A stretch of 64,000 bases of DNA from Raillietiella orientalis (lineage: Eukaryota): contig JAYWIR010000005.1 of the NCBI GenBank assembly GCA_036172245.1, forward strand, positions 4,030,001-4,094,000. The letters run 5' to 3'. The position numbers were made by a program, and so were the translations under genes. Shown in pieces: positions 1,995 to 35,100 of the stretch. Position 1 is the stretch's first letter; each line of letters begins with the position of its first letter. A model generated the notes under the pieces. That model did not search any database, was not told where the DNA came from, and was given only the letters and a program-made list of their open reading frames with translations.

Positions 1995-4482
1995 CTTTAA
2001 TTGCAATATCAATGTTCCCTGTTTATAACTTTTTGAGAACAGAAATTGAACGATTGCAGCTGATTACACAACACATGACTTTGAAATATTAAAACATAGT
2101 TATATGTTAACCACGATCTATCTTTCCAGACAACATCTTAAATAGCATTCTTTATAACCAAAGCGATATATATATTACATAATTACGTTATTCAACAAGG
2201 ACTGAATCACAACATAAGCTCGAAATCCATTTAAGAATTGTAATACATATCTTGATCTTCATTCAGAAGTACCAAAGAGTAAAAACATAAGCCATTTCTC
2301 CTGTCATCTAATCGTTTTCCTTTGAAATGAAAAACTTGAACGAAATATCCATTATTCTTATTGCAGATTATACGAACAAATTAATCCAAGATATATGAAT
2401 ATGAATTAGGTATATGAATCTAGCAAATGGAAAATTATAATAATCAGATAATTTTCAAGTGAGATATTACTTCTAATTGGCATTAAGGTTCGTCTTGCAA
2501 ATAGAGATCTCACTGCAAAATGAAGACTGTTAAGTATTAGGTGAGAAGAGCAAAGCCAGTATAAAATTGTCATTCTGCATTATGATTAATGTGTTGTCAT
2601 CGACCCTAAGAACACATCCTGTAGCAAACAAGTTGTCATGACATTCCCTATAGCACGAAATAGAAAAGGAAAAATTATTTCTAATCACAAGGATTTACTA
2701 ACATTGTTTTGTGTTGTAATTCTCACCTTATTGGCTGCATACTCATCTTTCGATTATGGGATTCATTTGCTAGAGAAATAAATTTGCTAGAATAGTTTCC
2801 GTGGATACTTATCATCCATTAGATGTCCTTATTAATGATCGCATAATATGCTAATAAAAGCAAGCAATCTTGAGATCCGAGCAAGTATTTTACCATTTCT
2901 GTGGTAGATGAGTTGAATTTATTACAATATACGATTTTGTTTATTGTCAACATCATTCCTATTTAAAACTGAAAAAATACTGGAAATTAGTGCATTTCAA
3001 TCTCAAAACATCATTATTTACTATGTAGAAGCATTTCAAAAAGCCTTTGGTTTTAAAGGTGATTTCTTTTATCATACTCAGGAAAACCATTGCATTTTTT
3101 GTTTAAATTTAAAAGACTGGAAAGTGCAGAGCAGAATGCAAGGAGAATCTGCGCTGTTATAGAATCAGTATTTGAAAGGTAAGAATTCAAACTGTCTTTA
3201 GTATTGCCGGCACGAATGAGAATGAAGTCATTTATCAATGAAAGTGTAATTTATTATACATAATTTCTAATTTATGTAAAAATATAATTTTTATATGCAT
3301 GTTTTGAAGTAGAAAGCAAAAGATTCCAACATTTTGAGGGGAAAAAAAATGTAATTTTTCCATAGTAAGAAGACCCATTGGATTTTTGGAAAATATCATT
3401 CACCAAAGGGAGTTGAAAGAGTTCATAAAGCCTTCTCCATAGGAAAAAGGAAACAGTGTCAAGAAAGAACAAAACGAAGAAATCAACGGGCGGCTCATCT
3501 TTCTGAAAAATTTCCCATAGTCCTGGAAACGAGAATTTGGATACCTTCACTTCGAACAAATTTGGCTGAAATTTGACTAAGATTAGGAAATTAGCTCTTA
3601 GGAAATTAGATTCAAGGAGTCAGCAATTCCTGCATTTGCATTCTGTTTCAGTTCATGTCTTTTTAAAAGAGAAATCAGAATCTTCTCTAATCAATACAAT
3701 GGAAAACAGCGAAACAGCCGTGTCAAAATTTTTTGTTTTCCTGGACAAAGCTACTTTTTTGTTCGTCTATTCAAAACTTGCAATCCGAGGTTAAACTTAG
3801 GTTGACGAACACTAACAAATGTTCTCCTTGCATGCTTTAGCACAAAAGTTCTTCACAAACTTCACCGAGTTTCAGAAACTTTGGATTTCTAATTCTAGGC
3901 AAGGCGATCACGAATGATTTGTTTCCTTGGGTCCTGTCATCGTAAACTCCACAGAACAAATTTTAATCGTCATCAAGGTTGAATTGACAGTCATTTTCGT
4001 GAACTGTTATATGTTTAGGAAAGACATGAGGATAATTCAAATAAAAGGAAATCAGGAGTATGTTTTTTAAAGCTGGTGGAATGGCACAAACTGATTTTTA
4101 GACCATTGACGACCAAGTTTGTGTTCGCTTGACGGACTGCAAAAATCGAAAGATGCATATAGGAGTAAAAAATTGACATTCAGAATTTTTAAGCTCTTCG
4201 CAGCCGACTCCTCTTCGTGTTATCGTTTATTTCCCCACTTATTGCATCCTCTTCTTATCTGGTCAAGTCTGAAAAAATGCATCTTTTTTGCATTTTTATG
4301 TAGACTTCTAAGTCTCTCTAAAACGGGAACTGCATAATGTCCGCTCTGGATAGCAGTTCGCTATCGAGCACGGGCATACAGATTGAGCTATAACACTCCT
4401 CATTCAATTGAAATCAAATCCTTCAAGCTGGAATTGAATCCAATTCCAATTGACAGTTTGGATTCCTCAATTAGTTCAGTCT

Positions 4483-6600: not shown

Positions 6601-7785
6601 ACGAGAGCTCGCTGAGTCTGGAATTCCGCCCGAGACCGCGTGACCAGCAGCAGCGCAGGGTCATCCTTAAATTAACACTGAGCCCATCGCGGACGTGCCG
6701 TCCCCTTCCTTGTTCACGAGAGGGGACCGCTGAGTCGAGTAGACACTTTCCGCAGCACTCCTCTCCCCTCAGGGACTATCACGAGGTCACGGAACTGCTC
6801 CTCTAGAGGTTCGGTACTTCCTTTGAAGAGCCTTTTATTGGGACCCGGGGAAGCCACAAAACTTCATCCCTCCCCAACGAAATTTTTCTCACGACCAGGC
6901 TATGGACCTCGTTTGATGCTGGGATTTCTGAAGTTCTTCATATGTTTTGGCGTCCATTCTTCTGTGCCCTTGAAAGCAGGACCTGAACCAGAGTTAGCAG
7001 AAGAAGGCAGAGATGAGAGTTTGCGAGAATGGGACAGGGGAACGAAAGAGGGGGAGGAAGGGAGGAGGAGGAAAAGGAGGAAGGGAGGAGGAGGAAAAGG
7101 AGGAAGGGAGGAGAAATTATTCGGATTCCGGATGATTCCTCTTTGTTCCAACTGCATGGATGAATTGCATCATCTTCAGGATCTTCTCCAGGTAGAGAGG
7201 GCGGAGTTCACTTGGAGCTTCCTGTCAGGAATCCGAAAGGGAGAAGGGAGCTTCCCGAGTGGGTTTTGCTCGCTAGCCCAGATGGGGATTTCCGGCCTTT
7301 TCGCCCTCCCTGTCCTATCCTGCTCCCGCCCCCTCGGATCCCCTCGTCCCTCGTGCGCTCTCGCCCTCGCCCTTCCCTCTTCTCGCCGGTCGCCGTGGTC
7401 TGCCCGCCTCCGTGGGGCGGCGCGGCAGCTGCTGCCGCACCGCGCGCCCGCCCGCTTCAGGTTCAGGGAGTCGCCGCCGCCGGCGCCTCCGAGCGGGCAC
7501 TTCCGACGGCTTCCCTTTGTTGCAGCATCCGCTCAGCACGGGGACGCACGCTGCGCGCGCGGCGGCGCGTAGCCGGGGAAACGCGCCAGGCCCCGTAACG
7601 CCGGTTACGCTCGGCTGACTGCGACTTCCTTCCGCTATTAACGCGCATCGGGAGATTCTCCCCCCCCCTTCCCCCTCCCCCTCCTTTGCTGGGCCCGCTC
7701 GCTCCTCCAGTCTGCAGCAGTCCAAGTGCCCGTGCGGTCGTCGCCGTCGGCGTGTGCTTGCGCTGGCGAGGCCGGGCCAGTTGTC

Positions 7786-10700
7786 ATGGGGACAGCGCGC
7801 CGCTTCCACAGGTAAGTGGGTGGGAGGGGAAGAGAGAGAGCTACGTCGAGGGGAGGGGGGAGTTGGGGGAGGGGCGGACTCGTAGATGCGAAAGGGGAGA
7901 CAGCGGTGGCGGCATCCTGTGATCCTGGAACGGGCGCTCCCCCCCCCCGTTCTCTCCTTCCTTTCCCTCACGCGCTGCCGCGAGCGCGCGCCGCCTCTGC
8001 CGGGCTGCGACCGAGACGAAGCGAAGAGGGGAGGCAAGGGGGGGGGGAGGGGACAGCAGAGGGGGAGCATGCGGCTCCTGCTGCTCCTCCTCGCAAGGGA
8101 ACGGGAGGAAGAGCGAGGGGGAGGGGCATTCCCGCCCGTCCCGTCCCGTCTCGCGTGCACTCCACGAGTGCGTGCTCGGGCGTTTTCCGCAGCCGCGTCA
8201 GGGACGCTCCGCGTGGCTATTAATAGGCCCGGGAACAGCGGGAGCGAACATTTCCCTCCCTCGGGAGACGGTTTCTTGCTCCCCCTCCCCCTCCCGCCCA
8301 CCTTGCGTCCGGGCGCGACGGGGGGAAGCCGCCGCTCCCTCTCTCCTCGGAGGAAGATGTGGGCGAGGCCCCCTCGCGCTTCTGCTTCGCTCCCCCGGTC
8401 GCTTTGCCACAGGAGACGAGGAAGGGACGGAGGGTCTGACCCATCTGACGAGAGTTGTTTCCCAAGGGCAGCCAAGGACGGGAACCTGGATGCCCTGAAG
8501 CCGGCGACCCAGCGGGACTTCAACGCCGTCGACGAGGATGGGTTCACGCCCACGCTGTGGGCCGCCTACGAAGGCCACCTGGACGCCCTACGACTGATCG
8601 TGAGCAGAGGGTCAGCTCGCGTGCGGTTCGGACAAGGGGGAGGCAGAAAAAGGGATCTCGCAAGGGACACAAGGAGATCTCGAGGGGGACAAGAAGGGGA
8701 ATCGTAGGACCCTCCCTTCCTGCTTCGCGGTGACGCCGCGCGCCCAGGAACCCGCTGCTGGGACGCGCCCGAAGATCGTTCCACTGCCTCCAGCGACGAG
8801 CGAGGCCCCAGCGCGCTGGGGGTCACCTGTGGGCGGAGTGGGCTGCCGTTGATTCCTCCCAGGGGACGGGATCTGAGCTCGGAGGCTGCTCGGTGATGGC
8901 ACCGGTCATCCACGGCCTGAGATCGATCGACTGGTGGCCACTGGAGCCGCTGACCGCATGTCCCTTCTGTCCCGAGCGACGGCGAGGGCGGCGGAACATC
9001 GTGCTTCCGCCGGCCCCTCTCCCGGCCCATCCCTCTCAGCTGCACGGAGTGAACGGAAGTTCCGACATCTTGCAGCCCCTTTCCGGCGCGCGACCAGTGG
9101 CACCAGCAGATGGTGACTGCTCTGGCTGGCCGCCTCGCTCACGCCCCTCGGGCAGGAAGGTCAGCCCGCTCTACCTCGGCTACGGGTTTTGAAAGGCGAA
9201 GCTGAAGGGCTCGGCGGGGGATTCCTGGATCTTGGGCTGACTCGGTGGGGGCGGGGTAAGTGGGCGGGGAGGGAAATACCCCGGATCCCCCGCACAGCTG
9301 CCCTGCGCCCGCTCTCCTTTCCCTCGCGCGGTCCGCTGGCGCCCACGCTCTTGCAGAGCGCCGCGCTCTCTTTCACCCTCACGACCCGCCTCGTGCGGCC
9401 CGTGGGAGCGTGTGGGCGGGGTGCATCTCTCGCCCGCCCTTCTTCTGCCCTCTTCGGTGCGCCGCCGCCGCCCGAGGCACTTCGCATGCGCGGCGGGTCC
9501 GCCTCTCTCGCCTCGCAACGGCTTCGTTTCTCCGAGGTCGCTGAGCCCCGGGGGCTCTTCGCAGTCCTCTTGGCGGAGGGTCCTCCTCGTCCTCGCGTCT
9601 CGAACCGCAGGAGGGGGTCAGACGGCTACTGAAATGGGGGGGAGGGGTAGGATGGGGATCTGACCCACGCAGCGGTTTCGCTCTCCTCCCACGCGCCTGC
9701 TGCGCCGCCGCGGGAGATCGGCTTGCCCTTCCGGCCGCGACTCCTCCTCCTCCTCCTCACCCCCTTCCTCCTCCGCCCTGTCGGATCTTCCCTGTTCCGC
9801 GCGGCCGGATCGAATTCCCCTCTTCCGCTCGTTCTCTCCCCCTCTGCCCCCAAAACGCCGTCCCCGCCTCTTCCTCGGTAGGGCGTCTCGGAGGCGCGGC
9901 GACTTCCGGCGCGTTCCAAGGAGGATGCGTGCTCGAGACGGGAGAGCAGCAGCAGCAGGGAACATGCGCAAGGACCGCGGCCCTATGACCCCGCGGCTGC
10001 GGTCCAACGAGGCCCACGTCTTCCAGCCAGCATTGCCGCCCTTTCCCTGCTCCTCCTTCCCCCCTCCTTTCCGTCGTTCCCGGGCTGCGTGAGGCTTTCG
10101 TTCCCTCTGCTCTGAACGGGGAAGGAGTGGTAGGCCCAGTTTGCTAGCAGGTCCAAACAGGACGCTCTCTGTTCGTGGTTTCCGTAAGGTATCAAGGGCC
10201 GCTTCTTCGATGACGCTATGAAAACGGCTTCTTAGACGGCGGGGGAGGGCTCCTGGATGGGGAGGGGCGATTGAGGGGTGGTCAAGGGGGTCGGCAAAGG
10301 GAAATTTTTTTTTTCTTCTGCCAAATGACGCGAGATATCAGCTAGGTCACGTCGCTGGGTTGCACATGACCCGAACGGGACGCACGCGGCCGGAGGAGGT
10401 CCCCGTGGGAGGGGACCCGTCGCTGCCGCGGCTAAGGGCCACCTACGGATCCGCTAAGAAGTCAGCGGCAGTGGAGTGGAGCTGCTGCCACAGCTCCCGT
10501 CGGTCGCCTCGGCGACGCCCCGCGCCTGCTCGCCCCGCTGCCACCCTTCGCCCTTTCCTCGGCCCTCCCGCGGCTTCGGCGGCGGCAGAGCCGCGCTCCC
10601 AGGAGTGGGGAGGAGGTGGGCACGAGGGAGAACCCGCGGGGAGCGGCGTTGCGCGAGCTGGGCGTCAGCCCTTCAAATCCTGAATTCCCGGAGCAAGAAC

Positions 10701-16049: not shown

Positions 16050-16635
16050 TTGCCCCGCGTTGGCGGCCGTGTGGCTGCTGTGGCCTCCGTGCGAGGCACT
16101 AAGCGTTGCGGGTTTGAACCTCCACGTGGAGGATCGGCTCTAAGGAATGGGGGATGCGTCGCGAGTTCGAGTTCTCCCCGCGAGATGACGCTGGCTGCCT
16201 ACATTCGGGTGCGGCACTGGTGGAAGCGGGATGCCCCGTCGAGTGGCCGGGATTTGGAAGTTGACCTTCTGGGATCCTTCCAGGAATCAAGGAGCCCTTC
16301 GGGGTTCCCTTCCGGTGGATTGATGCCTCTCCAGAGTGTCAAGAAGTGCTTTGCTCTCTTCGGGAGCGGCCCTTCAGGGAAAATTTGGAGGCGTCCCTTC
16401 GGGGTTCTATTCAGAGGAGGAGGAAACGGAGCGGTACCCTTGTGGCTGGAAATCCCTCTGGAGAAGAAATTCCAGGAGCGGGTGCTTTCCAGGTTCCCAT
16501 CGAAGAAGAAGCAATGGAGCGCCCTCACCCCCTCCGGGAGGGGGTCCTTCCGGAGAGAATGAGGAAGAGGGTTCCCTTCGGGGTTCCCTCCCAAGCGTGA
16601 GAGAGGAGCGGACTTCTCTCTCCGGAGCCCTTCCT
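16050..16635 (+). repeat. Interspersed repeat family R, copy 1
   Basis: Aligns by eye to the reverse complement of 32668-33422 (e.g. GGATCCTTCCAGGAATCAAGGAG, CCGGAGAGAATGAGGAAG, CCCTTCGGGGTTCCC) and to 26119-26545 and 29095-29393. Confidence 0.8.
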
Positions 16636-16649
16636 GACGCTCCCGTCTG

Positions 16650-26110: not shown

Positions 26111-26118
26111 CCCCCGGT

Positions 26119-26545
26119 GAGCGGACCCCTCTCATCGGGGACCCCTCCGGTTTGAAGATGGAGCAGGAGCCCTCACAGGCATCTCTTCAGTTGTTCAAAG
26201 GAGCATACCCCCCCTGTTGTGGGAGGGACCCTCCGAGTCCTCGCCTCTTCACAGAGTGCAGGGAAGCAAGCGAGAGCGATTCCCTTGCGGGAAGCTACAG
26301 CTCCCCTTCTGAATTTCAGAAGCGTCCCTTCGAGGTTCTCTTCAGAGGAGTGAACAGGAGCGGTTCCCTTGCGGGTTCCCTCCGGAGAAGGTGAAATGGA
26401 GAGACTTCCTCCCCCCCCCCTATTAGGTGGGTGTCCCTCCGGAGAGAATGAGGAAGGAGATTTCCCTTCGGGGTTCCCCTTCGGAGACAACCAGGGTGGG
26501 AGATGCGATCCCCCCCTCCCGAGTGGGTCCCTCCCCAAGCGTGAG
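26119..26545 (+). repeat. Interspersed repeat family R, copy 2
   Basis: Closely matches the reverse complement of about 32740-33157. The conceptual translations FKMDQESSQAPLQLFKG...PSGENEEGDFPSGFPFGDNQGGRCDPP are nearly identical. Confidence 0.9.
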
Positions 26546-26559
26546 ATTCTGCTCTCGAG

Positions 26560-27000
26560 AAAGAGAAGCGAGAATAAGTGGTCCCATAGCAGCGATCAAG
26601 AGGGGGAGTGAACAAACTCATCGGGGTTCACTTCTTCAACGCGGGGGAAGAGACGGCGAGAATGCCAACGTGGATGGGCGGCGTAAAGAAGTACTGCAAA
26701 GCTCTCGCCTCGAAAGGCGGCGGCACGAACGCCCGTAAAGAGGAACGTTCGGCAGATCGAATGGAGGTAGGGGAGAGTTGAAACGCAGCATAGGTGCATG
26801 ATGTCTGGTCGGATAGGCCAAGGACCAACCGGAGCGAACGCACGCAAATGACAGGCAGCCAGCTGGCAAAGTTCTTTTTCCCACCACAGTCTGCCAGAGT
26901 AACGAGTTGGGCTCGCTGTGTGCGACAGGGCCGATGATAGAGGACGCCACGTTGCCGCACTGTGGCCGAAAAGCTCAAAACTGCAATGGGGTTAGCTTAA
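26560..27000 (-). mobile_element. Decayed RT fragment
   Basis: LPVICVR...FLFTGVRAAAFRGESF (cf. GxPxxFI...IxTGVRQGxPLSxxxF). Shares a 67-bp tract with the RT remnant at 28507-28573. Confidence 0.45.
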
Positions 27001-27949: not shown

Positions 27950-30870
27950 TCACTCTCGGATTCGCAGCGGTGCAGAGTGGATGCATCTGCGGAAGGAACG
28001 GGAACGTGCGCGTCCTTCTTGGAATCTGTTCAGGATCGATCCCGGCCGCACACACTCCCGTTCCGCCGAAGAAAAGAACCTCCGAAGGCAGTAGTGCCAC
28101 TCACTGCTTCGCTTCGGCACAAAAAGGGGGAAGAGGCAGATGCTTTGTGCATAATCAACCTGCAAGAAAAAATTTTCTCGATTCTTCGAAAGAATCAATG
28201 AACGATCTGTTCCCTCAAGAGCCAGCTTGGACTCATCCTGAAGAACGGGGTGTCGGGGAATCGCTCGATGCCCACGCCTTGGGAGGGAAGAAGGGATGTA
28301 GGGGAGAAGGAGGTGGTACGGCGGCTTCACGGGTCACGTCACATCCGAGGCAGGTCGGAAGGGTGGGTCTCCTGGATTCTGCTTAACGATCTCTTGAGCG
28401 TTTCTGGTTCCGTCGCTTCTTCTCCGGAAGGTAGCAGCAGTTTGTGGGCCGATCAGCGGATGTATACTGGAAAAATGCTTCCAGTTCCCTTCATAAAGGA
28501 TCCTGACCGGTTGGTTCTTGGCCTCTCCGACCAGACATCACGCACCTTTGCTGCGTTTCAACGCTCCCCTACCGTCATTTGATTTGCTTCCTTTGGTCAT
28601 TTCGTTGGCTGGTAACCGAGGGGATGTTCCTGTTGCTGGAGTTTCCCCCTGAGGAATCAGCGATGCTCTCTCTCCCTCAATTCTTGGATATCCTTGCCTT
28701 TTTCCTGTTCCCTTTCCGCGCTCTGACTGCACGCTTGCCCTCGAGGCAGCTTGCGACCTTCAGTCTGGATTGCATCCAGACTGCTGACGCATCTGGGATC
28801 TCGCTCCGCTATTGAATCAAGCTATCGTGTCCTCAAAGATAGAACTACCTTTTCGGCTTCTGCACTAGTTGGGTTGCTTCTTCCGCTCTGCTGCTGTTAA
28901 AGGCAACTGCCACGTGTGCGCCTGATTGGAGAGCAGAGTCATGAGACTCGACTTAGCTCAATGGTTTACGACACCGGATGCGGAACATTTTGCACACCAC
29001 GGTCTTGCTCACGAATTGTTTTCTTCGGTTGTGGAAACGGAGCCGTCCATCGCGTACCATGGAGCTGGTTGATACGGCCATCGGGAGGGGAGTGTTGCCT
29101 CTCCAGAGTATCAGAAGCAAGTTGCTCCCCTGAGAGTTCTCTTCAGAGGAGCAAACAAGGAGCAGTTCCTTTGCGGATGCCCTATGGAGAAGAAGTTCAG
29201 GAGTGGATCTTCTCCGGCTTCCGTTCGGAGAGGAAATGAGGAGTGGCTTCCAACGGAAGGCTCCTCCGGAGAGAATGAAGAAGAGGTTCTCTTCGGGGTT
29301 CCTTCCCCAAGAGCAAGACGAACGGACTCCCTTTTACGAAGCCTTCCTGGATTCATAGGGTGGTCCCTCCGGGGTCACCCCCCTGACCTGAAGGGTTGCA
29401 TGGACAGTGTCAAAGAGCTTCGTGAGTTTCTTCTAAGGAGATGAACGGTTCTTCAGCACTAAGAGATTGCTTTCTTCCTGGTGCACCAGGAAGCTACGCC
29501 GTCGAGTCCTCAGAGTCTGCCGATGCTGCACACAAACGTGCGAGCAAACGTCAGCCTAGTTCCTTGTCTCTGGTTAGGGAAGCCGTAATGAGAAGCTGCG
29601 GCATCAAGATGAGGTGTCAGTTCAGGAAGTTTCGTCGGGATAGTTCACGGTTGTGATCCTGGTGATGGCAATCGAACTATAAAGAATGAACGGAGGACCA
29701 CTGCCAGCAGCCGAGGACGTTCTTTCATTCTTTCCATCTCTCACAAGCAGCTCTTTCATCTCACCCAAGGCACCTCGGTTTTCTGGATGACGTCAATGGG
29801 CTCCTCGCCTTCGGCCTGTCCAAGACTCGTTCGATTGCCATTCGTGCTGGAGTCCGTTTGTGAAACTGAACATTGAGTGGCTTCCTTGGCTCGCGGCGCT
29901 GGCCACCAGGATCTTGTTGTAAGCGTGCAGTTTCGCTCTGCGCCGTGGCGATGCTGGAATGAGTGCTCGTGGCCTAGCTGCGCCTGGTGGCTGTCTCTAC
30001 TGCCTGGTGGTACGTCTGGCTCGTTTGCTGACTCCTCGAACTGTCTTCCAGTGCAGTGAAGGAGTCTGCCATCGAGATCCGCCGGTGCTCTTTGGCTTCC
30101 TCAGAGCAAGCCTCCGCTCAGTAGCACGCTTGGAGTCGTCCGCTCCCCACCTGGAACGGATTCCTCCCATCCAGTATCCTATCCCGAATGTTCCTCCTCT
30201 TGACCGGCTCGATGGGGGGAGGGGACCACCGTCTCCATCGCAGGGGGTGTGCCGTTCCAATTCTCCGGTTTCAGCTGGTTAAAAATTAGTCAGCCTGTGA
30301 TGCACGCATGCAAGCGCGCCCATCAGAAAATCACCGCGGATCGGATGCTCTCGATGCCTCCCTCCTGTTCTCTGTTTGCTGGAGCTTTTCATCCGTCGGT
30401 CGAAAAGACTGGATGGAGAGTGATCGTTGCTCAGCATCCCGAAGCAGGGGGGACGGCACACTTGAGTCTCTCACTTTCCATTCTTTCGTGAGCCACCGAC
30501 AGGCCCGGATCACGGTTTTCGCACGGGATCTGTCGCGGCAGCAGGGACTTCTTGCACCTCTCAGATCCGCGAATTTCGCGGTCTCGGGGTGGACGCTGGA
30601 TCTTCTCGAAAAAAGTAAATCTTTTCCGAAAGAAAAAGCAAACGAACGCGGATGCAGATGATTCATTGCAGAGGAACGGAAGGACGTGGACATTAACAAG
30701 TTATAGATCATTTGGAAAGAGCCACAGATTGAAGCGCAGATAAACCTCCTCCTGTGTTGCGGTTCCAATGTATAAAACATTTCCGTGCTGTAGTGGCTCT
30801 CGAGACAATCCCAAGCGGTGGAACTCTTGATCTAGTATCAGCTCTTCGTTAAGCTTATCTTCCTTCCTGT
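27950..30870 (+). mobile_element. Decayed near-full-length RT-RLE retrotransposon interrupted by repeat R
   Basis: Ordered remnants: TPVPPKK (RT1), LLNDLLSVSGSV (RT3), LPVPFIK and WLVTEG (RT4), AYHG (YLG), SALRDCFLP (thumb), then RLE-like APLRSA...LD...SF...RK...LLLCCGS. Confidence 0.5.
29095..29393 (+). repeat. Interspersed repeat family R, copy 3 (inserted into an older RT remnant)
   Basis: Shares TGCCTCTCCAGAGT, GTTCTCTTCAGAGGAG, CCGGAGAGAATGAAGAAG and CCTTCCTGGATTCATAGGG...TGAAG with the other copies. Confidence 0.8.
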
Positions 30871-32408
30871 TCATTGATCGCGGTTCATTTTCAAAAACCG
30901 TGTCTTCCGCTGTTCATGCTCAAGTGACGAAAGCAGATAAAAGAAGCCGGTGCCGAGCCGGGAAGGAGACAGAACAAGCGAGAAGAGTTGGAGCTCGCTC
31001 CAAACTGGGTGAGGAGGGGAGGGGAGGGAAAAGGGAGTCAGAAGGGATGGTTTTCGATGCACCCTCAAAGCTCGCTCCTCCCTCTTCCCCCTCTTTCCTG
31101 GAGTGACTTCCGAGGTCCGAGGCGGTCCGTACTGCTTCCTCGTCGAAGTGAGTTGCGAGCCTCGCGCGTGATGCCTGGACATGGCAGCGTATGGATGAAT
31201 GATTTTACGGGGGGTGGCATGGCGCTCGCGAGCACCATTCCGATGAGGACGGATGCGGAAGCGGTCGGAAGTCACGCGGTGTGAAATTTGCAACATCTTC
31301 AACGCTCTGTAAGATGTTATTTCGTTCGCCCTGCTCGCATCTTTGGGCAAGAATTCGCTTTCGTTCAAAGTCCGTCCATTCTGTTCCTGCTCTACCACCG
31401 CCTACCTGCTTGTCTGCACGCGAATGGAGTCTCACTGTGGTTATCCATGACAGGAAGGGAAGGGAAAGGAAGGGGGAGGGGTATAGCTTTTTTTCCATCA
31501 CGAACAAGGAAAAAGCTGCTTTCCTTGTTTCACTGACAATTGGGATTGAACGGTCGGGCCGCGCTTCACTCGGTCATCTTTTTCGAGCAAGAAGCGCGGA
31601 CCCCGGTGAACCCATCGTTGGGTTGCTCGACCGCTCGGATGATTTCCTGCGAGGGAAAACTGCGAGCACGTCGCTCGCGTCGTTGGTGAGTGGTTGGGCG
31701 GGAGCGTGCCCTGGAACCGAGATGGGATCTTCTGGGCAAGACGAGGAGGAACCTGGAGCTGCGATGGAGGGGATCGCTTCCTAGTGGATCCGAAGCGAGG
31801 AAGACGCGGGTGAAGGACTTCACAGGGGCGCGCACGAACGAGGAGTTCGACCGCCTGCCCGGATCCACCTCGCTACCCGCTCCGCGAAATGGGGACACAT
31901 GAAGAGCGAAGCACGCCCGGGGGAAAGAAGGGAGAGGGACAGCATGGATTTGCCGCTGGCCCTACCCCTCATGCAAGAGTGAGATGAGTAACTACCGGCA
32001 GGAAACAGGGAATCGTCTTTGCGGCCATTTTGGCAGCATACCAGAGCGTCTTGAACTTCGTGGTGGATTGCGACTGCCAGAATGGCGCTCGACAAGGAGT
32101 CAAGATGGAGAGATGAGCTCCTGGACCTCCGTGACCGAGAGCACAGACTCCAGAGCCACGGAGAAAACAGATTTCTAGCCGAAAGAGGTCTTCCTTCTCA
32201 TCAAGGTCGGCAGATTTTCGGATATCAAGTCGGTTACGCGGCCATCGTAACTGCCACGCTTTCTGCGAAGGTGCTGAGCTGGACCACTGGGTGCTCAGTC
32301 GAGTGGCCGATCGTGATGGAAGCGGAAGGTATGCAAGGGGGTATGCAAGTGGGACATGAGAGAGTATGACGAGAATGATTTCCGGTCTAGTGATTTTTTC
32401 CAAAAAAA

Positions 32409-32665
32409 CGGAAAGCAACGCCCTTTGGAAAAAGGCGTTGCTTTTTTTTTCTGAAAAAAATCTATTTAGCATTTTGAATTATTACAAAAACTGCTGCTGG
32501 AATGGCTCTGGAGAATCTTTCGCGAATGATGTTTCCTCCGTGTTTTTCACGGTTCCTCGGTGCTTTCTTCCGGGGTGAGAGCATTGTCCAGATCATCTGG
32601 TTGGGCTGCATTTTTTCTTCTTGTGTTTGCATAGATGCTACTTGAAAAGCGGATGCAGGTGGCTA
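32409..32665 (-). mobile_element. 3' end (last ~40 codons plus 3' UTR with hairpin) of a young RLE retrotransposon
   Basis: Reverse complement of 33829-34093 at roughly 90% identity; encodes ATCIRFSSSIYA...QPDDLDNALTPEESTEEP*. Confidence 0.9.
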
Positions 32666-32667
32666 TT

Positions 32668-33422
32668 CTTCAAGATAGGGGGCACCCCAGGAGGGGAGTC
32701 CGCCCTATGAATCCAGGAAGGGCTCAGAGTCCGTTCCTTTCACGTTTGGGGAGGGATCCACCAGAGAGGGGGGGGGATCGCATCTCCCACCCTGGTTGTC
32801 TCCGAAGGGGAACCCCGAAGGGAAATCTCCTTCCTCATTCTCTCCGGAGGGAGACCCACATAATAGGGGAGGAGGGGGTCTCTCCATTTCACCTTCTCCG
32901 GAGGGAACCCGCAAGGGAACCTGTTCAGTCCTCTGAAGAGAACCCCGAAGCTTCCGAAATTCAGAAAGGGCGCTGCAGCTTCCCTCAGGGGGATCGCTCT
33001 CGTTTGCTTCCTTGCACTCTGTGAAGAGGCGACGACTCGGAGGGTCCCCTTCGCAACAGGGAGGGTCCACTCCTTTAAACAACTGGAGAGGTGCCTGTGA
33101 AGACTCCTGATCCATCTTGAAACCGAAGGGGTGCCCCCGGTGAGGGAAGTCCGCTCTCCGTTGCACGACCGGAGGGGGAACTCCCCACTCCTTGATTCCT
33201 GGAAGGATCCGAAGGTCGACTCCTATTGTTCCGGCCTTCATCGGGGCCTCCGGGCTTTAAACCGCTACCGGTGCCACGCCGAATGATTCGGCCAACCAGC
33301 GCCGTTGCAGGAGAAGCTCGAAACCCAACGACGCAATGGCGTCAGTTTCTGCCGGAGATTTTGAACCCGCGACGCATGGTACCACACGCGGAAGCCTTAA
33401 CCGCAAAGCCTCCGACGCGAGC
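32668..33422 (-). repeat. Interspersed repeat family R, copy 4 (longest, ~755 bp)
   Basis: Its reverse complement aligns with the three plus-strand copies; homology to copy 1 is traceable to about 33422. Confidence 0.85.
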
Positions 33423-34093
33423 ATGAAGCACGTGTCTCTGACAATGCAGCGCCATGATGCTATCCTAGAAATTATCAAGAAGGCCGCAACGGATGAAGCC
33501 AAGTGGACTCTGGTATCAAGTAATCGCAGAGTGTCAGGAACCACTTCCACCCTAAAACCAGACCTGGTTTTAGAAAAAAGCGACCGAGTAGGTGTGCTGG
33601 ACATCTCCTGCCCATTTGAAAACGGAAAGGAGGCGTTCACCACATCGAGGAAAATAAAGGAGGCCAAATACCATGATGTCCCCATGCAACTCGGAAACAC
33701 TGGGAAAATAACCAAAGTGCAGGAGATCATCGTCGGCTCGCCTGGAGCATGGGATCCTGAAAACGACAACGTTCTACAATACCTAGGAATTCCGAAGAAG
33801 AAGCCGATCAGGCTACGACAGCGGATGGTAGCCACCTGGATCCGCTTGTCAAGTAGCATCTATGCAGCACAGGTCAGAAGGAAAAAGGTTGCAGCCCAAC
33901 CAGATGACCTGGACAATGCTCTCACCCCGGAAGAGAGCACCGAGAAACCGTGAAGAACACGGAGGAAACATCATCCGCGAAAGATTCTCCAGAGCCATTC
34001 CAGCAGCAGTTTTTGTATTAATCCAAAACGCTAAATAGATCCCCCCCCCCTCCAAAAAAAGCAACGCCTTTTTCCAAAGGGCGTTGCTTTCCG
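33423..34093 (+). mobile_element. 5'-truncated non-LTR retrotransposon: open restriction-like endonuclease (RLE) domain plus 3' UTR, NeSL/Utopia-like
   Basis: Uninterrupted frame to the stop at 33953: QRHDAIL...TLKPDLVL...VLDISCPFENGKEAF...RKIKEAKY...IIVGSPGAWDPENDNVLQYLGI...MVATWIRLSSSIY. This is the RH / PD..D / K..KY / G..GAWDPxN signature of NeSL/Utopia-type RLE domains. The 3' UTR ends in an 11+3 bp hairpin (34058-34090). Confidence 0.9.
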
Positions 34094-34339
34094 CGCGAGA
34101 ATGTAGTTCCTAAGGAAGTTCTGGCTGTCTCCGCTCTCCACCTTATCAAGGGAAGCGTTCCACGAGCATCTGCGGCGGCAGAAAATCCTCGCATCCTTTA
34201 GGTGACGAATCTGCGCGGGGATGCTAGCTGCCAGCATCAAGAACTCCCGGAGCTCGACTTCAGCTCTTTCTTGCTGCCATTACCTTCATCGCTGTCATCG
34301 TGGTTAGCTCTCGTGAGATGTGAATGTCTCCCATCCAGC

Positions 34340-35100
34340 TGTGAACCCATGGACGACTGTCCGAATTCGGCTCTTGAAGGTTCCCTTCCGTGGTCCAGAA
34401 GATGTTTCACTCAGAGCGCAAATCAACGTTTTCTAGTACTCTCTGCCTGCATTGCCTGAAAGGCTACGTAGTTCTACTCTTTCGCTTAGAGGTGTGCCAC
34501 CAGTTTCCAGTCACGCTGCTGTTTCGGAAACCAAAGTACTCTGGAAACTCGACCCCGACCATTCTTATAATCCATACAAGTCACCATTTTCAGTCTAGAA
34601 GTAAAGAGTGCAAAGAAACGAAATGCTTTCACAGGACATCCCCCTCCTTCCCTCACCCAAAATGGCTGTTACGTGATGGAACAGTTAAAGATGGATGAAT
34701 TTACTAGTTTTTGGTAAAATAAAGAAACTGTTGCTTCGGTTGTTTAGACTGAGGAGACAGAGCCTTCGAAGTTCGCCAGAATACGGCAGATGTTGGCTAC
34801 GAACCGGTGGATGACTGTACCACTTCGACTCTTAGAAGGTTCCTTCCTTGGTCCAGGAGATGCTTCACCTAGAGCACGAATCAACGGCTTCCAGTCCTCA
34901 CCAGCATGTCTCTCGCCGAGGAACATCCTTGTAGTTTTACGTCTCTTGGGAAAGACGTTGAGCGCAGTCGAAATTCCTTCAAAGTCGCTCGTCTTTCTTG
35001 GAGTTGGCTCGTCGTTTTTTCCTTCCGATGGCGCACAGGCTGCTGCTCTCTGTGTTGTAGTTTCGTCCTTCCACACTTTTCACGATCGAGCGAACGGGAA
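34340..35100 (-). mobile_element. Decayed RT N-terminal region, partly duplicated
   Basis: LIRALGEASPGPR (cf. KSPGPDG). About 100 bp is directly duplicated (34343-34441 and 34801-34899). Confidence 0.4.

Follow-up and report, generated by a model that had tools for sequence, protein, structure and literature searches.

Two head-to-head retrotransposon 3' ends around an antisense SINE in Raillietiella orientalis, and a proposed origin from two separately primed cDNAs

The window, a 64,000-nucleotide stretch of Raillietiella orientalis DNA, contains two 3' ends of an RLE-type retrotransposon that point away from each other and enclose an antisense copy of a second repeat, R. The second half of LINE integration has been described as very poorly understood (PMC6895275). 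How such a structure is formed, and whether it is peculiar to one locus or reflects the way in which a whole family inserts, is the question considered here.

Anatomy of the insertion and its flanks

A sequence check of the window confirmed the order of parts between 32370 and 34103 that had been proposed from the letters alone, i.e. two head-to-head RLE 3' ends with antisense R between them (Table 1). The original prediction placed the element 3' ends at 32409 and 34093. Other copies of the family, however, cease to match at 34037 on the right and at 32463 on the left, and these positions are therefore taken as the 3' ends. The inverted arms, 32409-32665 and 33829-34093, are 88% identical over 266 alignment columns; in the tail proper, 190 of 202 aligned bases are identical. 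The endonuclease domain of the right arm is in the plus frame, with a stop codon at 33951-33953, and the zinc knuckle is lost; the window copy is truncated and contains no reverse transcriptase (RT). The R copy is without its normal 3' part and without poly(A), and near 32665, where it joins the left tail, ca. 3 nt are common to R and tail. We conclude that the insertion at 32463-34037 is real, one-off and three-part, and that it is a dead copy.

Table 1. Features of the composite insertion (window coordinates)
Feature	Position	Strand	Remark
8-bp direct repeat CGAGAATG, left copy	32370..32377	+	
71-bp quasi-palindrome, flush with the left tail	32392..32462	.	putative left copy of the target DNA between the nicks
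40-bp segment, inverted copy at 34054-34093	32409..32448	-	found only at the insertion locus
Left arm: 3'-terminal 203 nt of the RLE family, 3' end leftward	32463..32665	-	
SINE R, positions 7-766 of ~1040, 5' end (33422) complete	32666..33422	-	
tRNA-like head of R	33350..33422	-	aligned over its whole length to a genomic tRNA gene (one of 30)
Right arm: final 612 nt of an RLE copy, 5'-truncated	33426..34037	+	endonuclease domain and 3' UTR
Right flank: 16-nt linker with C-run, then 40-bp inverted copy	34038..34093	+	read as a remodelled second target copy
8-bp direct repeat CGAGAATG, right copy	34096..34103	+	

The 8-bp direct repeat is present at both predicted positions, but it is not the target duplication for which it had been taken. 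Since the tails end at 32463 and 34037, the repeat lies 85 bp outside the insert on the left and 58 bp on the right, while the target duplication of the RLE family runs 21-200 bp. An exact common 8-mer occurs in 12% of random window pairs of 100 x 70 nt, and in 0.3% of pairs of 40 x 12 nt. The left copy may be due to chance, to a repair patch, or to a feature that predates the insertion. Both flanks are single-copy, and a search of the assembly for an empty site returned none.

The outer 40-bp segments are complementary at 40 of 40 positions, and in two pattern searches of the genome their only occurrences were the two places at this locus. Rfam matches to the hairpin were all far under cut-off. 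This hairpin is not element sequence and is probably rearranged target DNA. The 71-bp quasi-palindrome was folded as DNA with -20.8/-22.7 kcal/mol, against a mean of -10.4 (sd 2.4, best -17.8) for 300 shuffles, and both of its ends read as the target motif of the RLE family. The right flank begins like the quasi-palindrome, continues with the core inverted, and then diverges. When the flank was aligned to the 71-bp target, a single inner inversion scored 55, inversion of the whole 31, and the direct orientation 3, though the single inner inversion leaves part of the flank unaccounted for. It is reasonably likely that a single-stranded end folded here and was then inverted during repair, a course of events described for L1 (bioRxiv 2024.12.14.628481). 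Alternatively, the hairpin may have pre-existed at the target and the insert may have landed at its centre. The C-run is accounted for by neither reading.

A 34-kb block of the window (4000-38000) has a GC content of 52-69%, against 32-40% in its flanks, and contains long frames without a Pfam match. The window also contains a 100-bp direct repeat (34343-34441 / 34801-34899, 80%) and an 81-bp inverted repeat (26752-26832 / 28507-28587, 89%).

The RLE family and the SINE

When the window endonuclease domain and 24 relatives were combined in a profile, R2 structures were matched at E 5e-30; Pfam alone gave no match to the window domain, nor to eleven other long ORFs of the window. In longer family copies, a CCHC knuckle lies directly upstream of the endonuclease, and RT, knuckle and endonuclease form one broken frame. 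The RT of one copy, L036, matched PF00078 (E 7e-10, over cut-off) in one frame with stops, and a Cys/His pattern, to which Pfam gave no match, was recognised by eye at the N-terminus of L048. Family copies range from 0.2 to more than 3.8 kb, with a fixed 3' end and variable 5' truncation. With these sequence features, the family is an RLE-type non-LTR retrotransposon.

The endonuclease is 41-43% identical to that of elements beside U2 genes of the same genome, and database relatives come from a turtle, a dragonfly and a Drosophila, groups that are among those listed for Utopia (PMC4640811). A database search with the RT returned one unnamed protein. No U2 match was found in the 3' flanks of 46 family copies, and no family DNA was present at the 25 U2 loci examined out of 46. 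On the pairwise similarity of the endonuclease, we regard the family as putatively Utopia-related and, as it is without U2 targeting, do not call it Utopia. An RLE domain was seen beside the U2 match at 10 of the 25 U2 loci examined (including L101, L105, L103, L113 and L114), which means that Utopia elements targeting U2 are, or once were, common here.

The genome searched was a 210-Mb assembly, from which 46 of 84 candidate family loci were fetched with flanks. Direct repeats of 21-200 bp were found at both sides of 20 of the 46, eight of them measuring 100-145 bp; three further loci with damaged tails had repeats of 17-35 bp, and the remaining loci had none. With duplication ends placed by hand and L048 left out, TT[TC] was found no more than 6 nt from the start of the duplication in 10 of 19 cases and, on the opposite strand, at the duplication end in 9 of 19 (background 0.18). 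The occurrence of the motif at both repeat ends, on opposite strands, suggests that both nicks are made by one nuclease.

Some longer or inverted repeats were set aside. The 60-bp inverted repeat of L042 was rejected as a second inverted target duplication, as it belongs to another repeat element in which the copy had landed, and the 411-bp and 263-bp repeats of L039 and L029 were not counted as target duplications. In L039 (G000:C43:1192000-1199500), a direct repeat of 411-428 bp surrounds 3.3 kb of other DNA and a truncated RLE copy; this may be an unusually long duplication, or a repeat that has nothing to do with the insertion. In L029 (4717-4990, 2479-2741), a 263-bp segment that recurs 1.2 kb upstream interrupts R at ~763.

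R measures ~1040 nt; its 5' end is fixed and bears a tRNA-like head, and full-length copies end in poly(A). Depending on the query, 728-2664 candidates were found in the genome. Free copies are bounded by short, flush, A-rich duplications of 9-18 bp at 10 of 24 loci. The combination of a poly(A) end with such duplications is an L1-type pattern, and R would thus normally move with another enzyme. The head scored 37 against the best of 30 tRNA genes, compared to 18.4 +/- 3.2 (maximum 31) for shuffles, a weak margin given that shuffles against another tRNA reached 36; ARAGORN and Rfam gave no match to the head. We describe R as a candidate ~1-kb SINE with a tRNA-like head.

The best relatives of the window R copy are 85-86% identical to it, and no near-identical source was present among the 40 scored of 2664 candidates (best 86%). 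An R remnant at 26115-26546 is also only 85-86% like its best relatives; together with 16255-16636 and 29106-29393, it appears to be an older piece of R or of an R-related SINE. Elsewhere, L063 contains an RLE copy inserted into such an R relative, and L027 contains two R copies (3388-4147 and 7207-7967) that are 99% identical and lie 3.8 kb from each other; one is complete and carries poly(A), the other ends at 763.

The right arm has six subfamily marks, including a 3-nt insertion, in common with L035-L037, to which it is 97% identical. At the six sites that mark this subfamily, the left arm has the majority-type state in every case. The arms derive from different subfamilies, in line with the earlier proposal that the two 3' ends came from different copies. 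L035-L037 (G000:C5:5.63-5.95 Mb) are 99% identical among themselves and lie on the contig of the window, 1.5-1.9 Mb away from it. The further claim that both 3' ends are far better preserved than their surroundings holds for the right arm, with its three close sisters, but R is no more similar to its best relatives than the R remnant is. Private changes are few in the arms, 0/176 and 4/566, the latter against 17/711 in R. R partners generally look older than RLE partners; no correlation between the private divergence of the two was found in 11 pairs (rho -0.42, p 0.2), a measure that is distorted by sister copies. An older-looking R fits transcripts captured from aged SINE copies, and equally fits sequential insertion.

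Two-ended copies in the family and the origin of the window insertion

A query with the tail only returned 38 loci besides the window. Nine of them are two-ended. In eight, antisense R lies no more than 60 bp from the 5' break, and in one, L017, a second tail is present in inverted form. From the local R density, antisense R so close to the break was expected at 0.014 loci (2 R elements in 202,555 bp, consistent with genome-wide candidate counts). Sense R near the 5' break and R at the 3' end were each found at 0 of these 38 loci. Three two-ended loci (L016, L064 and L065) were added from queries that also contained R, and three more (L091, L098 and L099) were present among 10 loci fetched of 24 candidates for a 5'-region query without R.

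A single direct repeat of 21-125 bp surrounds both partners at 9 of the 15 two-ended loci (L016, L017, L020, L021, L022, L023, L045, L065 and L091); none was found at the other six (L018, L019, L025, L064, L098 and L099), and at the window insertion there is at most a rearranged remnant of an enclosing duplication. In L016 (G000:C42:1412078-1413365) and L017 (G000:C7:3404196-3405136), which are cleaner than the window, two outward element tails lie within a 113-125-bp duplication, with arm identities of 145/151 and 40/40, respectively. These are the only other loci with two RLE tails. In L091 (G000:C4:4513000-4520500), a near full-length element stands head to head with R 771-6, with ~55 nt between them; a 102-bp repeat encloses both partners, and 68 extra bases follow the tail. 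The three-part build of the window was seen in none of the other loci.

The join is at the 5' end of R in 8 of 13 R-containing two-ended loci, which fits the synthesis of two cDNAs, since a cDNA of R would finish there. R ends at 746-771 in L019, L021, L091 and a same-sense R-RLE chimera, L066, and at 766 in the window; an end shared with four other composites fits a template jump onto the end of R RNA. The RLE break points are all different, and the two-ended copies are therefore separate events. The break of L020 is within 10 nt of that of the window copy, with a different R end and different flanks.

Several candidates were not accepted as two-ended. The extra tail of L015 (G000:C2:2949869-2951038) is in tandem and not inverted (a 150-nt tail and a truncated copy, 147 bp apart). 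In L049, R sits inside an RLE copy, flanked by a 12-bp duplication, and its insertion was an independent event. L067, with a 440-bp gap, and L041, with sense R at a 667-bp gap within the duplication, were not counted. Some 5' junctions contain patches, as from repeated template jumps: a flipped copy of the R head in L065, 11 nt of the R head in L094, and a repeated 7-mer in L099.

The sequences directly show the anatomy, the separate lineages of the two arms, the unique flanks and junctions, and the long duplications and two-ended copies throughout the family. For the window, we infer from these a single event with RNA templates, a template jump and a particular history of the hairpin. We consider it likely that each of the two nicks started reverse transcription on an RNA of its own, and that the left-hand copy switched from tail to R. 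The nicks, placed at a loose TT(T/C) motif and spaced by tens to ~200 bp, would each serve as a primer. From the bottom-strand nick, 612 nt of one element RNA would be copied into the right arm; from the top-strand nick, 203 nt of RNA from another subfamily would be copied into the left tail. The left cDNA would then switch to an R SINE RNA ending at 766 and copy it as far as the R 5' end, and the two cDNA ends would be joined at 33422-33426. R2-type enzymes are reported to jump between templates without homology (PMC6895275). Between the nicks, 60-70 nt of target would form a strong hairpin, one copy of which would be flipped and trimmed in repair, so that a 40-bp inverted repeat replaces a clean duplication. 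The earlier idea of two cDNAs made from one staggered cut is thus supported, mostly by other family copies and by the subfamilies of the arms, but its 8-bp marker is lost. Against it stand the absence of a clean long duplication at the window insertion and a right flank that can be derived only with an inversion, the deletion of 15-21 nt and a C-run of no evident source. The six two-ended loci without an enclosing repeat, the uncorrelated divergence of R and RLE partners, the want of a close source for the R copy, the three-part build met nowhere else and the absence of an empty site count against it as well.

The same structure could have been built by sequential insertions, in which R (766-7) with the right arm, or R alone, came first, and a later RLE copy, targeting the motif regenerated at the end of R, left its 203-nt tail. 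L019 and L091 do contain an R that stops at this point and has no tail, and R looks older than both arms. There is, however, no duplication at either inner junction, the missing 5' part of R follows the RLE 3' end in 0 of 46 copies, the break points in R range from 7 to 539, and duplications lie outside R in seven loci; we regard this history as unlikely. A lower probability still attaches to a ready-made R-plus-tail chimera as the left RNA, i.e. a SINE that uses the RLE tail as a mobilisation signal. The passenger family that the original prediction envisaged on these lines finds no support, as RLE sequence was present at 0 of 24 R loci and no second copy of the R/tail junction was found among the 40 scored of 1473 candidates. 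The R head is intact, R is in sense with the tail, and one other same-sense chimera, L066, exists, but its join is at another RLE position, and free R copies have a poly(A) end and A-rich duplications of their own.

An assembly or polishing artefact at the strong hairpin, affecting the whole structure or the right flank alone, is suggested by the homopolymer runs and hairpin at both ends and by the C-run, which no template matches. A fold-back read would make identical arms, yet the actual arms are of different subfamilies, and other contigs show the same arrangement together with ordinary duplications; an artefact is thus very improbable. The probability is close to negligible that a fold-back element with LINE-derived inverted arms moved as a unit and made 8-bp duplications, an alternative raised at the outset on account of the inverted arms with their 40 perfectly complementary terminal bases and the 8-bp repeat close by. 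The terminal hairpin is unique, neither the R/tail junction nor the R/RLE junction (none among the 40 scored of 728 candidates) recurs, and the 8-bp repeat stands off from the arms, by 31 bp at one and by 2 bp at the other.

With priming at both nicks as the preferred reading for the window, we lean slightly towards a wider one, in which the widely spaced second nick routinely primes on a separate RNA, mostly that of a SINE, so that about a quarter of insertions consist of two cDNAs head to head, and two-ended retrotransposition is a regular pathway of this Utopia-related lineage and not an accident. Long nick spacing and frequent two-RNA inserts in one family would be genomic evidence for second-nick priming on unrelated RNA. 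The pattern bears on how such elements finish inserting and on the side products of gene insertion with R2, and suggests a way in which SINE heads may meet new LINE tails. Its value lies in the family-wide pattern and frequency, not in the dead copy of the window.

Comparison with known systems

The family resembles Utopia in having an RT, a zinc knuckle and a C-terminal RLE, and differs from it in lying outside U2 genes and in duplications far longer than the 0 or 20 bp given for Utopia (PMC4640811). Crocodilian Utopia is described as having also left U2, with duplications rarely seen (PMC4640811). Very long target duplications are shared with two other RLE-bearing elements, R9 of rotifers, which is rDNA-specific with a duplication of one length, 126 bp, and Dualen-4b of Chlamydomonas, with a median of 900 bp; Dualen has a second, APE nuclease (PMC9977147). 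In contrast to R9 and Dualen, the present family is dispersed, and its duplications vary from 21 to 200 bp. In the accessible text of PMC9977147, no mention of two-ended inserts for R9 or Dualen was found, and a 2026 R2 review (PMC13580325) was silent, for the terms searched, on inserts that are inverted or two-ended. Across the literature searched, largely without subscription papers and Repbase reports, two-ended inserts made from two RNAs were described for no RLE element.

The closest parallels come from L1. Antisense Alu/L1 and tRNA-half/L1 chimeras have been likened to twin priming by their authors, who count, for the human genome, 113 Alu/L1 chimeras of which 88.5% are sense (bioRxiv 2025.02.02.635956), and extension of a reciprocal L1 end on another mRNA has been described (bioRxiv 2024.12.14.628481). 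As in these chimeras, a foreign RNA appears to be copied in opposite orientation at the 5' side and, as at remodelled L1 ends, short inversions and inverted duplications of target DNA occur. Trans cases are reported to be a small minority for human L1 (bioRxiv 2025.02.02.635956; PMC12016303), whereas antisense SINE is present in 8 of 38 sampled copies of our family, and flush sense SINE in none. In twin priming as described for L1 (Ostertag and Kazazian 2001), one L1 RNA serves for both cDNAs, the second being primed internally, and 18-22% of L1 insertions are of this type (PMC12016303). Strict twin priming, from one RNA, does not describe the window, where the arms overlap over the entire tail and differ in subfamily. 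The insertions of the present family would resemble L1 twin priming in that opposite cDNAs, primed from both target strands, lie in one target duplication, and would differ from it in that the second cDNA comes from another RNA, that of a SINE or a second element 3' end, and in that the enzyme is of the RLE type.
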